Shown: positions 451 to 35,153, counted from the stretch's first letter. The stretch is DNA of 64,000 nucleotides from Treponemataceae bacterium (GCA_963678065.2 CAXXVZ010000004.1:640001-704000); one strand, 5' to 3'. Numbers and translations: made by a program. Notes: generated by a model not told the origin, from the sequence alone.

Positions 451-1278
451 TCAGTCTCCTTGGCCGTTTCCGGCACTATCGCCCCGGCCGCCCAGCGTCG
501 CCATGGGCAGGACGTACCTGCCGTAGTCCTCGTGGTGCCCGAAGAGGAACTCGGTGTTGTATGCCCGCTCGAGCGTCTCGGGCACGAGGACGCGATCCGG
601 GCTGCCCGTGACGGCGGAACCGTCCGGCATGACGAGGACGATGCTTTTCGCGTAGCGCCTCGCGAGGTTGACGTCGTGCAGGCTCACGAGGAGAGCCTTT
701 CCGCCCGCAGAGAGATCGACGAGGCCCTCCATGAGTTCGATCTGTCGGCCGGGGTCGAGGTGGGCGCAGGGCTCGTCGAGGAGGATGGCCGGACACTCCT
801 GGGCAAGGGCGCGAGCGATGAGAACCCGCCTCGCCTCGCCGCCCGAGAGTGTCGTGAAGGGGCGGCCTTCCATCTCCGAGAGGTCCATCGCCCGCAGGGC
901 CGCGTCCACGGCCACCCTGTCCGCGGCGCCAAAGCTTCCGAAGGCTCCGATGCGGGAATACCGCGCCGCCGCGACGACTTCGCGGATGGTGAAGGGCCAG
1001 GCCGCCCCCCCCGTCTGGGGCACATAGGCGAGACATTTCGCCCTCTCCCTGAGAGAGAGCTTCTGGAGGGGCTTGCCACCCAGGGTGACGCAGCCCGCCA
1101 GCGGCGGAAGGAGGCCGGCGATCGTCTTGATGATGGTCGTCTTTCCGGAGCCGTTCACGCCGAGGAGAGCGACGAGCCCGCCAGAGGCCAGGTCGAAGGA
1201 AATTTTTTTCGCGACGATCCTCGATCCGTAACCCGCGTCGAGGTCGCTGACCGAGAGGACCGGAAAACCAGAGCTCAT
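451..1278 (-). CDS. btuD: Corrinoid/iron-chelate ABC transporter ATPase
   Basis: Walker A GVNGSGKT, signature LSGGE, Walker B ILLDEP. Lies in an operon under a B12 riboswitch. Confidence 0.85.
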   Translation of the reverse strand: MSSGFPVLSVSDLDAGYGSRIVAKKISFDLASGGLVALLGVNGSGKTTIIKTIAGLLPPLAGCVTLGGKPLQKLSLRERAKCLAYVPQTGGAAWPFTIREVVAAARYSRIGAFGSFGAADRVAVDAALRAMDLSEMEGRPFTTLSGGEARRVLIARALAQECPAILLDEPCAHLDPGRQIELMEGLVDLSAGGKALLVSLHDVNLARRYAKSIVLVMPDGSAVTGSPDRVLVPETLERAYNTEFLFGHHEDYGRYVLPMATLGGRGDSAGNGQGD

Positions 1279-2306
1279 CGGGATGCCTCCCGCTCGCGCC
1301 TCGCGATCTTCCAGAGGAAAAAAGGAGCTCCGAGGAGGGCCGTCAGCGCGCCGACAGGAACCTCGATGGGGGCGAAGAGGGTGCGCGCCGCCACGTCGGA
1401 GGCGAGAAGGAGTATGCTCCCCGTGAGGCCCGCGGCCGGCAGGAGATAGCGGTGGCCGGGGCCGACGAACTTGCGCGCGAGGTGGGGAGAGATGAGGCCG
1501 ACGAAGCCTATCGTTCCCGAGGCCGCGACGGCCGCCGAGACGGCGAGGGTCGCGAGGGCTCCGATGCCGAGCCGGGCACGGGAAGGATTGAGGCCGAGGC
1601 TGATGGCCTCCTCGTCGCCCGCCGAGAGGACGTCGAGGACGCGCGCGGAGAAGAAGAGCCCCGTGAGACCTATCAGGGTAGGAGGCAGGGCTGTCAGGAG
1701 CTCGTCCGCGCCCTTGGCGGAGAAGCCTCCGAGGAGCCAGAAGAAGACGTGGTGGAGGTCGCGGTCGTTCAGGGTCAGGACGATGGATACCAGGGCTGAA
1801 AGCATGGCCGAGAGGGCCGTTCCGGCGAGGAGGAGTCCGGTCGCGTCGCCGCGCACGCGGGAGGCCCGCGCGACGGAGTAGACGACGGCGACGGAGCCGA
1901 GTCCGCCGATGAAGGCCCCCGCCCCCACTCCGGAGAAGCCGGCGAAACTGAACTTGACCCCGAAGACCATGGCGAGGACGGCGCCGAGGGCCGCGCCGGA
2001 GGAGCCTCCGATGACGTAGGGATCGGCGAGGGGGTTGCGGAAGAGGCCCTGGAAGGCCGCGCCGGCCGCGCCGAGGACGCAGCCCACGAGGGCCGCGAGG
2101 AGGCCGCGCGAGAGGCGAAGGGAGACAATGACCGTCTCCGGGCCTTCGATGCGCCCGAAAAGGGCGGCGACAGCTCTGGAGGGCGGAAAACGCACCGCGC
2201 CTATCCCCAGAGACAGCGCGAGTATGAGGGCGAGCATCCCCGTGAGGAAGATGAGGACGGCGATGGCCTTCCCCCGCCCTCCCCTTCCGGCCGCGTCGGA
2301 TTTCAC
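1275..2306 (-). CDS. btuC: Corrinoid ABC transporter permease (FecCD/BtuC family)
   Basis: FQGLFRNPLADPYVIG and GTIGFVGLISPH motifs. Likely GTG start at 2306, right after the btuF stop. Confidence 0.85.
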   Translation of the reverse strand: MKSDAAGRGGRGKAIAVLIFLTGMLALILALSLGIGAVRFPPSRAVAALFGRIEGPETVIVSLRLSRGLLAALVGCVLGAAGAAFQGLFRNPLADPYVIGGSSGAALGAVLAMVFGVKFSFAGFSGVGAGAFIGGLGSVAVVYSVARASRVRGDATGLLLAGTALSAMLSALVSIVLTLNDRDLHHVFFWLLGGFSAKGADELLTALPPTLIGLTGLFFSARVLDVLSAGDEEAISLGLNPSRARLGIGALATLAVSAAVAASGTIGFVGLISPHLARKFVGPGHRYLLPAAGLTGSILLLASDVAARTLFAPIEVPVGALTALLGAPFFLWKIARREREASR

Positions 2307-2307
2307 C

Positions 2308-3207
2308 TTACTTTCCGGCCCTGAGGCCTTCGAGAGCCTTGGCCATGAGTTCGGCGGCGTCCGCGAGGCGCGGGCCGGCGCGGGACACGATGTCGCCATT
2401 GAGCAGGAAAACGCGCTTCGCCTTCACTGCCGCGAGCCCGGCCCAGCCCGGCCGCGAGCCGAGTCTCTCCATAGTGACCCTGTCGCCGTGGGTGTCGGAA
2501 CTCATGATGATATCGGGGTTGCGCTTCACGATCTCCTCGAAGCTGACGACGGGCCAGTCCTGGCTCGCGTCCGGGAAAAGGTTGCGGCCGCCGGCGATCT
2601 CGATGAGCATACCGGTGAAGGTCCTGGGTCCCGCACTCATGAGGGGGTCGTCCCAGGTTTCCCAGAAAACGGCCGGCCGCTCCGAGGCGGGAACCTTGGC
2701 CGTCCTCGCGGCGACAGCCTCGATGCGGGATTTCATTGAGGCTACCGACTTCGCCGCTACTGCGGGGTCGCCGGCGATCTCGCCTATCCGCGACAGTGTC
2801 GCGTAGATGTCCTCGAAGCCATTCAGACTGAAGACGACCGCGGCGAGTCCGGCCTTCCTGAGCTGTTCTGCCAAGGCTCCGTGGGTTTTCAGCTCGCCGA
2901 CGACAAGGTCGGGCTTGAGGGCGAGGACTGTCTCGACGCTGATCGTCTTGGCGGAGAATCCGCCGATTTTCGGTTTGCCGGCCGCCTCGGGCGGATAATT
3001 GCAGTATGTGGTGTCGCCGACGAGAAAGGAGCCCGCGCCGGCGGCGTATATGATTTCGGTCAGGGCCGGCGAGAGCGAGACCACTCGCAAAGCCTTGCCC
3101 TTCAGACGGACGGGTGTCCCGGCGCCATCGACGAAACCGATGCTCTGGGCCTGAAGCCCGAGGGCCAGGACAAAGACGGCCACCGCCGCCATTGCGATAC
3201 GTTTCAT
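2308..3207 (-). CDS. btuF: Corrinoid-binding periplasmic protein
   Basis: Signal peptide, RVVSLSPALTEI and SRAGPRL motifs, GGAGG RBS. First gene after the cobalamin riboswitch. Confidence 0.85.
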   Translation of the reverse strand: MKRIAMAAVAVFVLALGLQAQSIGFVDGAGTPVRLKGKALRVVSLSPALTEIIYAAGAGSFLVGDTTYCNYPPEAAGKPKIGGFSAKTISVETVLALKPDLVVGELKTHGALAEQLRKAGLAAVVFSLNGFEDIYATLSRIGEIAGDPAVAAKSVASMKSRIEAVAARTAKVPASERPAVFWETWDDPLMSAGPRTFTGMLIEIAGGRNLFPDASQDWPVVSFEEIVKRNPDIIMSSDTHGDRVTMERLGSRPGWAGLAAVKAKRVFLLNGDIVSRAGPRLADAAELMAKALEGLRAGK

Positions 3208-3365
3208 GTTTCCTCCCTGCCTGCCGACGCCGGCGGTACATGGCCGGAGCGCCTGTCAGGTCTTCGTGGAGGAACGTTCGGACTGGACGGAATGCAGTTG
3301 CGGCTGGAGAAAAAATGCTTGCCGAAACTCGACGCCTGGACCACGAAGCGTTCCTGAATGAGTCA

Positions 3366-3550
3366 CGAACGGATCGGGTATCCTGACTCGCGAGGCATCC
3401 GGATTTTGGGCAGAGGCAGATATCGCAGGCCTCGGTCCGGCCATCCGGCCGACACGCTCACAGTTACGGGCTAGTTCCGGATTCTCACCGGATTCCCCCG
3501 AACGCCCTCCCCTCTGGTTCAACGACCCTCGGGAACAGGCATTCCGTTCG
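3366..3550 (-). ncRNA. Cobalamin (AdoCbl) riboswitch
   Basis: The minus strand reads GGGAATCCGGTGAGAATCCGGAACTAGCCCGTAACTGTGA...GAGTCAGGATACC (B12-box). Closing stem CGAACGGA (3550-3543) pairs with TCCGTTCG (3373-3366). Upstream of btuF. Confidence 0.9.
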
Positions 3551-3557
3551 AATGCGG

Positions 3558-3586
3558 ACTATATCCTCTGCCGGAAGCGCCGTCAA
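3558..3586 (-). promoter_or_regulatory. Sigma70-type promoter for the riboswitch-btu-cobU transcript
   Basis: TTGACG-N17-TATAGT. The predicted start (~3551) coincides with the 5' end of the riboswitch. Confidence 0.75.
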
Positions 3587-3629: not shown

Positions 3630-3974
3630 CTAGCAGCAGCTCCTCTTGCTTCCCGATTTCCCGCTTTCAGCGCCGCCGCAGCCGCAGGCCGGAGCCGTGC
3701 CCCGGAGTTTTCCGTTTATGATGGCGGCGGCGCAGCCGACTCCCGCCTTGACCGAGAGCGCGCCCACGGGACAGTTGCGCGCACAGGCGCCGCACTCCAT
3801 GCACAGACCGCGGTCGAGGATCGCGGCTTTTCCCCCGCCTTTCGCGCCGGGCTGCGCAGACTGCAATCCGAAAACCGCGTGGGGACAGACCTCGACGCAG
3901 ATGCCGCAGCCGATGCAGGCCTGTGCATCCAGCGACAGGCTCGTCCCGTTCTGTATGTACCGAAAAGCTTTCAT
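3630..3974 (-). CDS. hgcB: Mercury methylation ferredoxin HgcB (2x[4Fe-4S])
   Basis: CIGCGICVEVCP and CMECGACARNCP, then GVGCA and a C-terminal CGC...CC. Directly downstream of hgcA. Start MKAFRY follows a GGGGGA RBS. Confidence 0.93.
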   Translation of the reverse strand: MKAFRYIQNGTSLSLDAQACIGCGICVEVCPHAVFGLQSAQPGAKGGGKAAILDRGLCMECGACARNCPVGALSVKAGVGCAAAIINGKLRGTAPACGCGGAESGKSGSKRSCC

Positions 3975-4059: not shown

Positions 4060-5247
4060 CTAGAATCCGAACGCGAGAGCGAATCCCCCGAAAAGTATCC
4101 CCGATGCCGCGCAGACGATCATGGGCACGAGTCCCTTTTCCACTTCGAGACGGGCCCCCGTCTGAGAAGTGAAGGTTGAACAGCCGGTGAAGTTCATGCC
4201 GAGGAAGGCCGAGACCGCGCCGCAGATCGCGGCGGCGGCGAGCGCGGCTCCCGGATTCGCGCCGGCGAGGACGCCTGTCGCTCCGCCCCAGAGGGCGCCG
4301 AGAAAGGCCCCCTTGAGAGCGAATGCCCTGAAAGGAAGAAGGGGAAGAAGAGCGGGGAGGCCGACTGTGCCCGCCACGACGCCTCCCGAAAGGATGCCGA
4401 AAACAGTCGCCCAGACGGCAAAAAAGTCCGGCGCCGCTCCTCCCGATCCGACTCCGGCGCCCAGGCGCGCGAGGAGGGCTGCAAGTACAGCTATGAGGGC
4501 GACCGCGGCGAAGAATACCCAGGAATGGACGAACTCGACCGGAACGAGAAGGAGGCGGTCGACGAATCCGAAGCGCACCGTCCGCATCGCCTCGCCCTTC
4601 CTCATCCCTGCGTCCATCCAGGCGGGAATGTCCGCCGCGCGGACGGGGCCGTAGATCACCGAGAAGCCGGCCCTGCGCGCGATTTCGTGCGCCGAAACGC
4701 CCGAAGCGCCGAGCTGGGGGAGGATGAGACGCCTGTGCGAGACGAGGGCCCGCAGTCCCGTCTTCGCTATCCTCGAAACGAGTTCCTCAGTCCCAAAGCT
4801 TCCCTTCCCGGCGGCGCACCAGACATTCACCCCCTTCGTATCGAGGACGAGTATCCACGCGTCGATTCCGGAGAGTTCCTTGCGGAGACTGTCGAAGCTG
4901 AGTTTGTAGTTGGCCGTCACGAGGACGACAGATTCGGGACGGGGAGCGCCGAGGGCGTAGATCCCCGGCCGGACTCGGTAGCTGTTCCTGCCCATCCCCC
5001 ACCGCACCTTCCATCCGCCACGTCTGTCATTCAGAGTCAGACGGGTGCCGACGACCGGGATCGCGCGCCCGGGGACTTCGAGTCTTCCGGTCACGAAGGG
5101 TTGGCCGAGGGCAGCCTCGTCGGTCCGCACATCGATCTTCGCATCGATTCCAGGACTGCGCGTGTTTCCCGCGGCGAAGCTGTGGGCCTGTCCTGTCGGT
5201 CTGAAACCGCCCGCGAAGGGGCCGCTTCCGCTGTGCTCACGATTCAT
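4060..5247 (-). CDS. hgcA: Mercury methylation corrinoid protein HgcA
   Basis: Cap-helix motif GVNVWCAAGKG, VTANYKLSFD and LILPQLGASG, a C-terminal multi-TM domain ending NFTGCSTFTS, and adjacent hgcB. Confidence 0.95.
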   Translation of the reverse strand: MNREHSGSGPFAGGFRPTGQAHSFAAGNTRSPGIDAKIDVRTDEAALGQPFVTGRLEVPGRAIPVVGTRLTLNDRRGGWKVRWGMGRNSYRVRPGIYALGAPRPESVVLVTANYKLSFDSLRKELSGIDAWILVLDTKGVNVWCAAGKGSFGTEELVSRIAKTGLRALVSHRRLILPQLGASGVSAHEIARRAGFSVIYGPVRAADIPAWMDAGMRKGEAMRTVRFGFVDRLLLVPVEFVHSWVFFAAVALIAVLAALLARLGAGVGSGGAAPDFFAVWATVFGILSGGVVAGTVGLPALLPLLPFRAFALKGAFLGALWGGATGVLAGANPGAALAAAAICGAVSAFLGMNFTGCSTFTSQTGARLEVEKGLVPMIVCAASGILFGGFALAFGF

Positions 5248-5765
5248 GATCCAGCCTCCTGTCTACAATCCGCGGACGCGCCGCGGTCACTCGTTCCAGC
5301 ACAGCAGCCATCGAAAGGCTTCGCGCGCAGGGCAACGGCTAGGGTCGCTATTCCGTCCACGACAGTCTGACGGCTGTCGGCGGGAAGGGATTCGAGGACA
5401 TCGGCGTAGTACCGATCGCAGATTTCGTGGATGGAATCCACCTTGTCTCCGCCGGCCGGGGTCAGCGCGACGACTTGCCGCCGTCTGTTCGCCATGTCGG
5501 TCTCGCGCGACGCAAGACCAGCCCTGACGAGCCCGTCCACAGTCCGGCTCAGGGTGCTCGCGTCGAGGTCGAGTATCCGCGCGCAGTCGCCGACTCCGGT
5601 CGGACCGCTTTGATCCAGCTCCAGAAGCAGGTGGCACTGGGCTACGGTCACTCCGCAGCATCCCGTCTGAGAGGAGAGTGCGCGCTCTATCTGGCGCTCG
5701 AGGAGTCTGAGGTTGCGGCGGAATTCCCTCACGTGGGCTTGCGGTTCATCATTCACAGATCTCAT
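5244..5765 (-). CDS. Cys-rich MarR-family transcriptional regulator
   Basis: wHTH LDASTLSRTVDGLVRAGL..R....NRR, with GCCGVTVAQCH and a C-terminal GCC...C. Its stop overlaps the hgcA start (ATGA). Exact start uncertain. Confidence 0.88.
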   Translation of the reverse strand: MRSVNDEPQAHVREFRRNLRLLERQIERALSSQTGCCGVTVAQCHLLLELDQSGPTGVGDCARILDLDASTLSRTVDGLVRAGLASRETDMANRRRQVVALTPAGGDKVDSIHEICDRYYADVLESLPADSRQTVVDGIATLAVALRAKPFDGCCAGTSDRGASADCRQEAGS

Positions 5766-5772
5766 GTATAAC

Positions 5773-5802
5773 ACATATATTGCGTATTGCAATATATGTC
5801 AA
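5773..5802. promoter_or_regulatory. Putative MarR operator overlapping a TTGACA -35 of marR-hgcAB
   Basis: Perfect inverted repeat ACATATATTGC-N5-GCAATATATGT (5773-5799), AT-rich in a GC-rich background. Minus-strand TTGACA at 5802-5797. Confidence 0.75.
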
Positions 5803-5859
5803 CTACAATCGACAGCCGCCCGCTTGCGCCCACCTGGCGAGGTCGGGAATACTCTCGCC

Positions 5860-6981
5860 ATGAGCTTGAGACCCTTCGCGCTCGAACGGTATTTTGCCCG
5901 GCACGAGTTCAGCGCCCGCTACCTTCTCGGATCGAGCGACCCTGAATCGATGTCGGTGCGTGAACTTCTCGCCCTCGAACCCGGCTCTGAGGCGGGCCTG
6001 GGAGATCTGCGGCTCGGCTACACGGAGAGCCTCGGCCATCCCGATCTCCGGAGGGACATCGCCGCGACCTACACTCAGACAGACCCGGACTCCATCATCG
6101 TCTTCTCGGGCGCCGAAGAGCCCATATACACATTCATGAACGCGGCGCTCGAAGCGGGGGATCACATCATCGTCCACTTTCCCTCATACCAGTCTCACCA
6201 CGCCGTCGCACAGGCGCGGGGAATCGACGTCTCGCTCTGGAAGGGAGATCCCGCCGCGGGCTGGGCTCCGGAGCCCTCGGAGCTGGAAGACCTCATCCGG
6301 CCGGAGACAGTGGCCATCCTCGTCTGCACGCCCCACAATCCGACCGGCTGGCTCGCCGACGCGCGGGCATGGGCGCGAATCGTCGACATCGCCCGGGCGC
6401 ACGATCTCTGGCTGTTCTCGGACGAGGTCTACCGGGGGCTCGAGCACGAGCCCCCGACGCGGCTTCCCCAGGCCTGTGATCTCTATGAGAAAGGGATCTC
6501 GCTCAACTGTCTCAGCAAGAGCTGCGGCCTCGCGGGCCTGCGCATCGGCTGGATCGCCACACGGGACAGGGAACTCTTCGCGAAACTCGCGGCCTACAAG
6601 GATTACCTCAGCATCTGCAACAGCGCTCCCTCGGAGTACCTCGCCGGCATCGCGGTCCGTCACATGGAGACGCTTTTCGGACGCAGCCGGGAGCGGGTTG
6701 TGCGGAATCTCGACCTCCTCGAAGCCTTTTTCGCGAGGCGATCCGATATATTCCGCTGGATGCGCCCGGGCGCCGGATCGACCACCTTCCCCGAGTACAC
6801 AGCAGGGGATTCCTTCGAACTCTGCGAGCGACTTGTGGCCGAAACGGGCATCATGCTCGTGCCGGGACGTTTTTTCGATATCGAAGGCGGCTTCATCCGC
6901 TTCGGCTACGGACGTGAAAACCTGCCGGAAGTTTTGCCGCTGCTGGAAGAATGGCTTGAACGGGCGGCGCCCGGCCGGTAG
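5860..6981 (+). CDS. PLP-dependent aminotransferase class I/II
   Basis: PHNPTG, SDEVY and LSKSCGLAGLRIGW (PLP lysine). Likely start MSLRPF. Confidence 0.88.
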   Translation: MSLRPFALERYFARHEFSARYLLGSSDPESMSVRELLALEPGSEAGLGDLRLGYTESLGHPDLRRDIAATYTQTDPDSIIVFSGAEEPIYTFMNAALEAGDHIIVHFPSYQSHHAVAQARGIDVSLWKGDPAAGWAPEPSELEDLIRPETVAILVCTPHNPTGWLADARAWARIVDIARAHDLWLFSDEVYRGLEHEPPTRLPQACDLYEKGISLNCLSKSCGLAGLRIGWIATRDRELFAKLAAYKDYLSICNSAPSEYLAGIAVRHMETLFGRSRERVVRNLDLLEAFFARRSDIFRWMRPGAGSTTFPEYTAGDSFELCERLVAETGIMLVPGRFFDIEGGFIRFGYGRENLPEVLPLLEEWLERAAPGR

Positions 6982-35117: not shown

Positions 35118-35153
35118 AAAAGCGGGACCGGGCAGAAGCCCGGTCCCGCTTTT
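35118..35153. terminator. Bidirectional-type intrinsic terminator after kduD
   Basis: AAAAGCGGGACCGGGC-AGAA-GCCCGGTCCCGCTTTT, a perfect stem. Confidence 0.85.

Follow-up and report, generated by a model that had tools for sequence, protein, structure and literature searches.

A cysteine-rich MarR protein and its predicted tandem-box operator upstream of hgcAB in a Treponemataceae bacterium, with trivalent metalloids as candidate inducers

The comparative evidence presented here establishes the marR gene lying directly upstream of the hgcA/hgcB pair in a Treponemataceae bacterium as part of a real, conserved regulatory unit. Our overall reading, to which we assign a probability of about 0.55, is that this unit would be an autorepressed marR-hgcAB operon, held by MarR on three operator boxes and released by a trivalent metalloid. 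The window, i.e. the whole 64,000-nucleotide stretch of DNA that was analysed, contains the following features, given with the method of detection.

3630-3974, minus strand: hgcB, 114 aa, a ferredoxin with two CxxCxxCxxxC motifs and a C-terminal CC (NF040864)
4060-5247, minus strand: hgcA, 395 aa, a corrinoid protein with the NVWCAAGK cap helix and a membrane tail (NF040863)
5244-5260, minus strand: AGGAGG ribosome-binding site for hgcA, in the marR 3' end (5260-5255), plus the ATGA stop/start overlap (sequence)
5244-5765, minus strand: marR, 173 aa, putative MarR-family repressor of the hgcA-linked clade (ORF and Pfam)
5763-5777, no strand: predicted operator box 3, scoring 10.2 bits and covering the candidate -10, the start site and the ATG (matrix scan)
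5773-5799, no strand: perfect inverted repeat with 11-nt arms (5773-5783 and 5789-5799) and a 5-nt spacer (repeat search)
5774-5779, minus strand: TATATG, candidate -10 at 17-nt spacing from TTGACA, imperfect and uncertain (read from sequence)
5779-5793, no strand: predicted operator box 2, scoring 11.5 bits, between the -35 and the candidate -10 and at the centre of the 11-5-11 inverted repeat (matrix scan)
5795-5809, no strand: predicted operator box 1, scoring 10.9 bits, with the TTGACA -35 as its right half (matrix scan)
5797-5802, minus strand: TTGACA, the predicted -35 element, located 3 nt upstream of box 2 (sequence and matrix)

The identity of the two downstream genes is clear. HgcA scores 401 bits against NCBIfam NF040863 (cut-off 275) and HgcB 110 bits against NF040864 (cut-off 99); both thus pass the equivalog cut-offs, and they have, respectively, the cap-helix Cys motif and two 4Fe-4S motifs with a C-terminal CC. 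HgcA residues 1-62 form an N-terminal extension of about 60 residues ahead of the start of the NCBIfam model (gene at window 4060-5247, minus strand), which varies among homologs and is Cys-rich in some of them (L100). The overlap of the marR stop with the hgcA start that had been noticed originally is present, the hgcA ATG occupying 5247-5245 and the marR TGA 5246-5244, and AGGAGG sits 7 nt upstream of it. This -4 overlap is the commonest marR-hgcA junction (36/94 homologs), the two genes lying within 25 nt of each other in 85 of the 94, and the three-gene unit is kept at homologous loci while the flanking genes differ. The original prediction would have been abandoned had hgcA possessed its own promoter inside marR; the promoter scan detected no minus-strand consensus site within this gene, and a loose -35/-10 pattern was counted in the last 250 nt of marR at only 3/99 loci, versus 58/89 upstream regions. 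From the DNA sequence, co-transcription and autorepression of marR-hgcA-hgcB can be considered very probable. In one lake metatranscriptome, 7% of words were shared and four short contigs were obtained, none covering marR. A hairpin 3' of hgcB (z -2.2) has no U tract and was not called a terminator. Immediately behind hgcB, window 451-3586 (minus strand) contains a site resembling a promoter, TTGACG-17-TATAGT, at 3586-3558, a cobalamin riboswitch at 3376-3498 (RF00174) and btuF/btuC/btuD-like ABC transporter genes; corrinoid uptake genes thus adjoin the unit of the corrinoid protein gene hgcA, an arrangement that is not recurrent in homologous loci. Elsewhere in the window, 35118-35153 is a perfect hairpin with 16-bp arms and A/T tails at both ends, resembling a bidirectional terminator.

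The association of this MarR with hgcA is strong in the phylum. The nearest loci with a named source are from Spirochaetia, and a protein from a genome of this phylum matches one assigned to a Spirochaetia bacterium. A first scan of the genome collection with a single-protein query returned 4 loci only, whereas a profile search identified 30 carriers of the clade among 401 Spirochaetota genomes, with hgcA directly downstream in 29 of the 30. The exception (L112), which is followed by the gene of a C-GCAxxG-C-C-like protein, has neither C36 nor C116 nor the tail CC. Across all loci with at least 300 nt downstream, hgcA follows marR in 96/98, a count that includes the window and keeps near-duplicates; one miss is a contig-end artefact. 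Fifteen new loci from 40 closer relatives comprise 13 with hgcA behind marR, one at a contig edge and one divergent paralog (in G410), which has no C116, has the same box array and precedes an amino-acid transporter. HgcA itself is above cut-off in 78 of the 401 genomes, and this MarR occurs in 29 of these and not in the other 49. Since 27 of the 29 marR-linked proteins fall into one branch of the HgcA tree (SH-aLRT 93), the co-occurrence counts describe mostly one old cassette and not many independent events. What is seen is therefore mostly a marR-hgcA cassette kept under selection since one old event, with the box array and the cysteines retained down to about 30% protein identity. Beyond Spirochaetota, the clade is represented by a few source names only (Polyangia, Desulfatiglandales), without gene context.

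At the other 50 hgcA loci in the phylum (two duplicate or partial copies excluded), the slot upstream of hgcA is filled by an ArsR-type gene in at least 15, by a more distant Cys-rich MarR in two and by an Acr3-like gene in two, while many have nothing recognisable there. The distant MarR proteins have a very Cys-rich tail and precede hgcA at L143:2695-3201 (minus strand) and L162:951-1457 (plus strand); they lie inside the ArsR-associated HgcA branch and possibly represent another regulator swap. An Acr3-type arsenite exporter gene is found immediately upstream of hgcA in L140, where a family scan confirms it, and in L152.

The operator was predicted at the outset to be a palindrome overlapping TTGACA just upstream of marR. 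The palindrome is real, with perfect 11-nt arms and a 5-nt spacer, and the 64 kb contain only one other perfect repeat whose arm is at least 11 and whose loop is at most 10. An operator is indeed kept upstream of orthologous marR-hgcA pairs, but as tandem 15-bp boxes and not as this 27-mer: only 1/89 homologous upstream regions comes within 2 mismatches of the 22 arm positions, and 8/89 within 5. The 27-bp palindrome was thus ruled out as the operator unit for lack of literal conservation, and the 11-5-11 inverted repeat is a by-product of a symmetric three-box array. In the window, the three 15-bp boxes have the core TGTA-N3-TACA, lie 16 bp apart and span 5763-5809. An unguided count of spaced 4-mer palindromes found exact TGTA-N3-TACA in 60/89 upstream regions (0.37 in dinucleotide shuffles), and TACA-N5-TGTA, the junction of tandem box copies, in 35/89. 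The 15-bp matrix, trained on these 89 non-redundant homologous regions with the window excluded, places a box in 85/89 regions and at least two boxes in 65, and 77/82 neighbouring boxes are 16 bp apart. Against this matrix, the scores of the window boxes compare with best scores in shuffled sequence having a 95th percentile of 5.6 bits and a maximum of 12.7 in 500. A further set of 11 upstream regions from relatives' loci, all long enough to scan and less than 60% identical to the training set, yielded a box of at least 6.8 bits in ten and of 5.8 bits in the eleventh. Binding of MarR to the three boxes would be expected with high confidence.

The array appears to be confined to this promoter. 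In the 5.27-Mb genome, box pairs at 16 bp consist only of the two overlapping pairs at the marR promoter, other pair spacings giving 0-3 each; the array is unique to this site, which suggests a local regulon. A wider regulon of paired boxes was considered and rejected, as the genome has no 16-bp pair outside this promoter; single boxes of at least 10 bits number 122. With respect to promoter geometry, TTGACA is positioned 3 nt upstream of a box in 16/89 homologs, as here, and in 46 others the first box is located 8 nt behind it. The promoter scanner skipped the marR promoter because TATATG is without the final T. The marR ATG at 5765 has no Shine-Dalgarno sequence and stands at the end of box 3, and 9/21 homologs with the same promoter geometry likewise have an ATG in frame and no more than 3 nt from their last box; the marR mRNA, with a predicted start near 5767-5765, is likely leaderless or near-leaderless. 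On the opposite strand, a promoter-like TTCACA-18-TATATT (5752-5781, plus strand) overlaps boxes 2-3 and is directed towards the divergent gene of a PLP aminotransferase (5860-6981, plus strand), so that MarR might also affect the aminotransferase gene here. The gene occupying this position upstream of marR is not a conserved neighbour.

All the cysteines first noted in MarR, i.e. those of the GCCGVTVAQCH stretch (C36, C37 and C44) and C154, C155 and C167 at the C-terminus, are present in the protein, together with C61 and C116. MarR matches PF01047 at 37.7 bits (cut-off 24.6) and is also above the cut-off of PF12802. Its AlphaFold model (mean pLDDT 89.8) displays the canonical MarR fold, with the family's winged helix-turn-helix domain and six helices, and its comparison with MarR structures gives Z about 16-17 for 140 residues. 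In this model C36/C37 end helix 1, C44/H45 are in helix 2 and C116 is in helix 5, the tail being of low confidence. No close relative was found among solved structures, the best identities being about 22-24%, and ESM Atlas matches were generic MarR clusters only. PF01022 (HTH_5), the ArsR/SmtB domain of the regulator of Pseudodesulfovibrio mercurii ND132, gave no match in MarR at E<=0.001, and the marR locus is not among the 16 PF01022 matches of the genome. In total 426 MarR homologs were found, 65 of which were aligned (A1), and a profile search with the family returned 264 clusters at E<=1e-30. Conservation over 94 distinct loci-derived sequences is 93/94 for C36, 94/94 for both C37 and C44, 88/94 for C116 and 86/94 for the tail Cys, a tally biased by the selection of rows on Q[CS]H and of metagenome loci with CC-favouring patterns. 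Among 150 wider representatives, taken without regard to gene context, the CC pair is found in 135 and C116 in 77 only. C154/C155 are conserved; in the displayed rows of alignment A1, there is no conservation of C61 or C167.

This arrangement of cysteines recalls MarRars. AdMarRars from Achromobacter deleyi As-55 needs Cys36, Cys37 and Cys157, and it binds its own promoter and that of arsV, from which As(III)/Sb(III) release it; the available text of this source gives no operator sequence (10.1101/2021.08.12.456183). The equivalents in the window MarR are C36, C37 and C154/C155, the tail Cys being matched by position only, and 8/94 clade members are without the tail Cys that AdMarRars requires. 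In the tree and alignment, AdMarRars was represented by a homolog from Achromobacter marplatensis (P0383), which has C36, C37, C45, C151 and C157 and matches the window MarR at 44% over 75 residues, C37 being aligned with C37. A tblastn search against plasmids gave 69 records, and the lowest-E matches examined (9e-19 to 1e-13) adjoin arsB/acr3, arsC, arsN, arsM or permease genes. We examined 16 records, comprising 13 ars-linked MarRs with Cys at or near the CC position and 3 controls from unrelated contexts; two of the ars-linked set (L121 and L207) have only ArsP-like/ArsV-like neighbours, i.e. a permease or oxidoreductase gene. The 15-bp box is located upstream of 11/13 ars-linked MarRs (at most 5 of 200 shuffles as good), some of which are near-copies, and is absent in 2. 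It also precedes one of the 3 controls, the Cys-less MarR fusion L214 (15.6 bits); the box hence shows kinship in DNA reading and not arsenic sensing. In Bacillota, Pseudomonas and Deinococcus (L120-L123, L206-L211, L216), it can be viewed as a candidate for the operator of ars-operon MarRs.

Phylogeny adds to this picture. A first quick tree of 65 rows was set aside, its long-branch outgroup being misplaced inside the hgc clade. In a careful tree of 40 rows, from which L143, the two longest rows of the outgroup and nearly redundant rows of the hgc and ars sets had been removed, the hgc-linked MarRs form one clade (98/96), which groups with the ars MarRs and one Cys-less MarR at 75/80 with a small outgroup; the AU test did not reject the grouping of hgc and ars MarRs (p 0.37). 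By its anatomy the window MarR would work like MarRars, and its membership in the MarRars clade is weakly supported. The two share the MarR fold, vicinal Cys36-Cys37 before helix 2, a C-terminal Cys and an autoregulatory gene position. They differ in that the predicted target of the hgc-clade MarR is hgcAB and not arsV/arsN/arsP, in the additional conserved Cys116, which is absent from all 16 ars-linked MarRs aligned, and in the usual presence of 2-3 boxes at 16-bp period; moreover, the window marR has no ars island at its locus, and its inducer is one that we infer. The original idea of a thiol-based sensor repressing hgcAB is supported, and its open list of signals (Hg, As(III) or redox) can be narrowed: the evidence favours trivalent metalloids because the nearest characterised kin of MarR is MarRars. 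By this analogy, As(III), MAs(III) or Sb(III) is somewhat more probable as the inducer than a metal ion or an oxidant.

No match to ars genes was found near the window locus, which is therefore not an ars operon or island of the MarRars kind; the two acr3 operons of the genome are on another contig (C2) and have their own ArsR. Among the 40 loci with at least 800 nt after hgcB, 15 have an ars-type match there. In 12 loci, several of them closely related, an ArsC-like gene is convergent with hgcB, with matches below the family cut-off (L001, L002, L003, L005, L008, L010, L017, L020, L021, L062, L063, L080). A gene for an ECF-type sigma factor (by eye) is divergent from the marR promoter in L224, L222, L029, L030, L037 and L044; it is followed by arsM in L224 (reverse complement, 3-1454) and by a permease gene in L222, and the sigma-marR intergenic gap of L224 is about 30 nt, with the box inside. 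Genes of a C-GCAxxG-C-C family recur beside these MarRs (L075, L081, L099, L114, L115, L191, L120), not only at hgcAB loci but also within an ars operon of Clostridium.

The ArsR-type regulator of hgcAB in ND132 responds to arsenic, not Hg, and hgcAB of this strain also responded to SAH-raising treatments; in the available part of this source, hgcA is not Hg-induced in ND132 nor in the earlier work cited there (10.1101/2022.10.17.512643). On the effect of losing hgcAB, the summary of the same source says that there is no significant loss of arsenic resistance, and its abstract that the knockout is more As(V)-sensitive. Like ArsR2 of ND132, the window MarR would be a Cys-rich winged-helix repressor in the slot directly upstream of hgcAB; however, ArsR2 belongs to PF01022 and is backed by expression data, whereas the window MarR, a predicted repressor, belongs to PF01047 and has other Cys positions. 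Our search of mostly open-access papers found a MarR upstream of hgcA only in PMC10349881, in the two strains Dethiobacter alkaliphilus and Geobacter daltonii, given by COG annotation only and as not ars-operon-associated. By eye, these two proteins share with the window MarR a CC ahead of helix 2 and another CC at the C-terminus; they have no equivalents of Cys44 and Cys116, rather resemble the ars-operon MarRs of Bacillota, and may be separate recruitments. A regulator of no stated name precedes hgcAB in 112 genomes in the available text of PMC7438021, and that of PMC11984097 treats only arsR-like genes. The same literature search returned no tested hgcAB regulator other than the ArsR-like protein of ND132 and no hgcAB operator or MarRars-hgcAB link.

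Other signals have to be weighed against a metalloid. The main rival explanation keeps the same autorepressed operon and supposes a sensor whose specificity has shifted to a soft metal ion, namely Hg(II), methylmercury, Cd, Zn or Cu, via Cys44, His45 and Cys116 in addition to Cys36/37. The regulated genes do methylate Hg, and C116, conserved in the hgc clade (88/94), is missing from the ars-linked MarRs. AdcR and ZitR bind Zn with Cys30, Glu41, His42 and alpha5 residues 107-112, the zinc sites being Glu24, His42, His108, His112 and Cys30, Glu41, Glu107 (PMC6372160). By inferred position, the window MarR would likewise have ligands of a metal-binding type where helix 2 starts and within helix 5, and C44/H45 would coincide with AdcR Glu41/His42, provided that the +1 offset seen where the profile match begins is right. 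However, AdcR/ZitR have a Glu/His site, zinc as co-repressor and the operator TTAACYRGTTAA, and their sequence similarity to the window MarR is weak: AdcR matches at E 1.7e-6, and only Cys44 and His45 plausibly match zinc ligands, by offset. The window MarR also keeps the Cys triad of MarRars, and the absence of Hg induction reported for ND132 hgcA weighs against a mercury sensor, though the regulator of that strain differs. We therefore consider soft-metal sensing unlikely. A thiol-redox or reactive-sulfur sensor (disulfide or persulfide), which would turn on the oxygen-sensitive corrinoid/Fe-S pair by redox state, is in our view improbable, even if five conserved cysteines sit on a fold shared with the redox-sensing OhrR and AbfR and the position of C116 in alpha5 presumably resembles that of their resolving Cys. 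The peroxidatic Cys of these redox MarRs is in the N-terminal part of helix 1, whereas the window MarR has no Cys before residue 36 and hence none in the N-terminal half of alpha1. OhrR/AbfR are no closer to it than other MarRs (17-20% identity), and its nearest sequence relatives are in ars operons.

Two further explanations depart more from our reading. MarR could regulate only itself or a lost ars target, hgcAB being a passenger with its own promoter. Such a view would accommodate the co-occurrence in mostly one lineage and the absence of this MarR from about two thirds of the hgcA-positive genomes of the phylum (49/78), but we judge it very improbable in the face of a stop/start overlap or a gap below 25 nt in most homologs, no conserved internal promoter, a three-gene unit that stays while its flanks vary, and boxes and cysteines that persist to about 30% identity. 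The least probable explanation replaces the inorganic ion, as the signal, by a metabolite of the methyl cycle or a corrinoid one (SAH, cobamide). The effect of SAH-raising treatments on ND132 hgcAB and the cobalamin riboswitch and btuFCD-like genes after hgcB here point in this direction; yet the conserved ligand-side residues are Cys/His, and btuFCD has its own promoter-like site and was absent from the genes that recur around homologous loci.

Under the preferred reading, i.e. release of an autorepressed marR-hgcAB operon by a trivalent metalloid, apo-MarR dimers would occupy the three 15-bp boxes over their own promoter and start codon and block RNA polymerase. Arsenite, methylarsenite or antimonite would be bound by C36, C37 and the tail Cys, and this binding would shift the winged helices and release the DNA. 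A single transcript, probably with little or no leader, would then give MarR, HgcA (translationally coupled) and HgcB. The clade-specific Cys116 may act in concert with Cys44/His45 to adjust specificity, or it may provide a second site with them.

This regulator bears on the inducer of hgcAB and on the native role of HgcAB. That a second, unrelated repressor family with features of an arsenic sensor occupies the same slot speaks for convergence on arsenic, and if metalloid sensing is true, there would be a second, unrelated tie between arsenic sensing and methylmercury genes. With a defined candidate operator and defined cysteines, a single purified protein and a probe of 50 bp should suffice to identify the inducer. 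In metagenomes, the box can moreover serve to flag regulated hgcA genes, which screens restricted to ArsR would count as unregulated. Should arsenite or methylarsenite be the inducer, arsenic would become a direct variable for the expression of methylation genes in fermentative spirochaetes. More tentatively, hgcAB could be under trivalent-metalloid sensors of two unrelated families, the MarRars type more than once, with the five-Cys clade in about a third of the hgcA-positive Spirochaetota covered and seemingly independent recruitments in Dethiobacter and Geobacter; the native role of HgcAB could lie in organoarsenical or antimony chemistry, because MarRars otherwise governs genes directed against methylarsenite and arsinothricin. 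We regard this extension as rather doubtful; if it is true, mercury methylation would be a side reaction inducible by arsenic.
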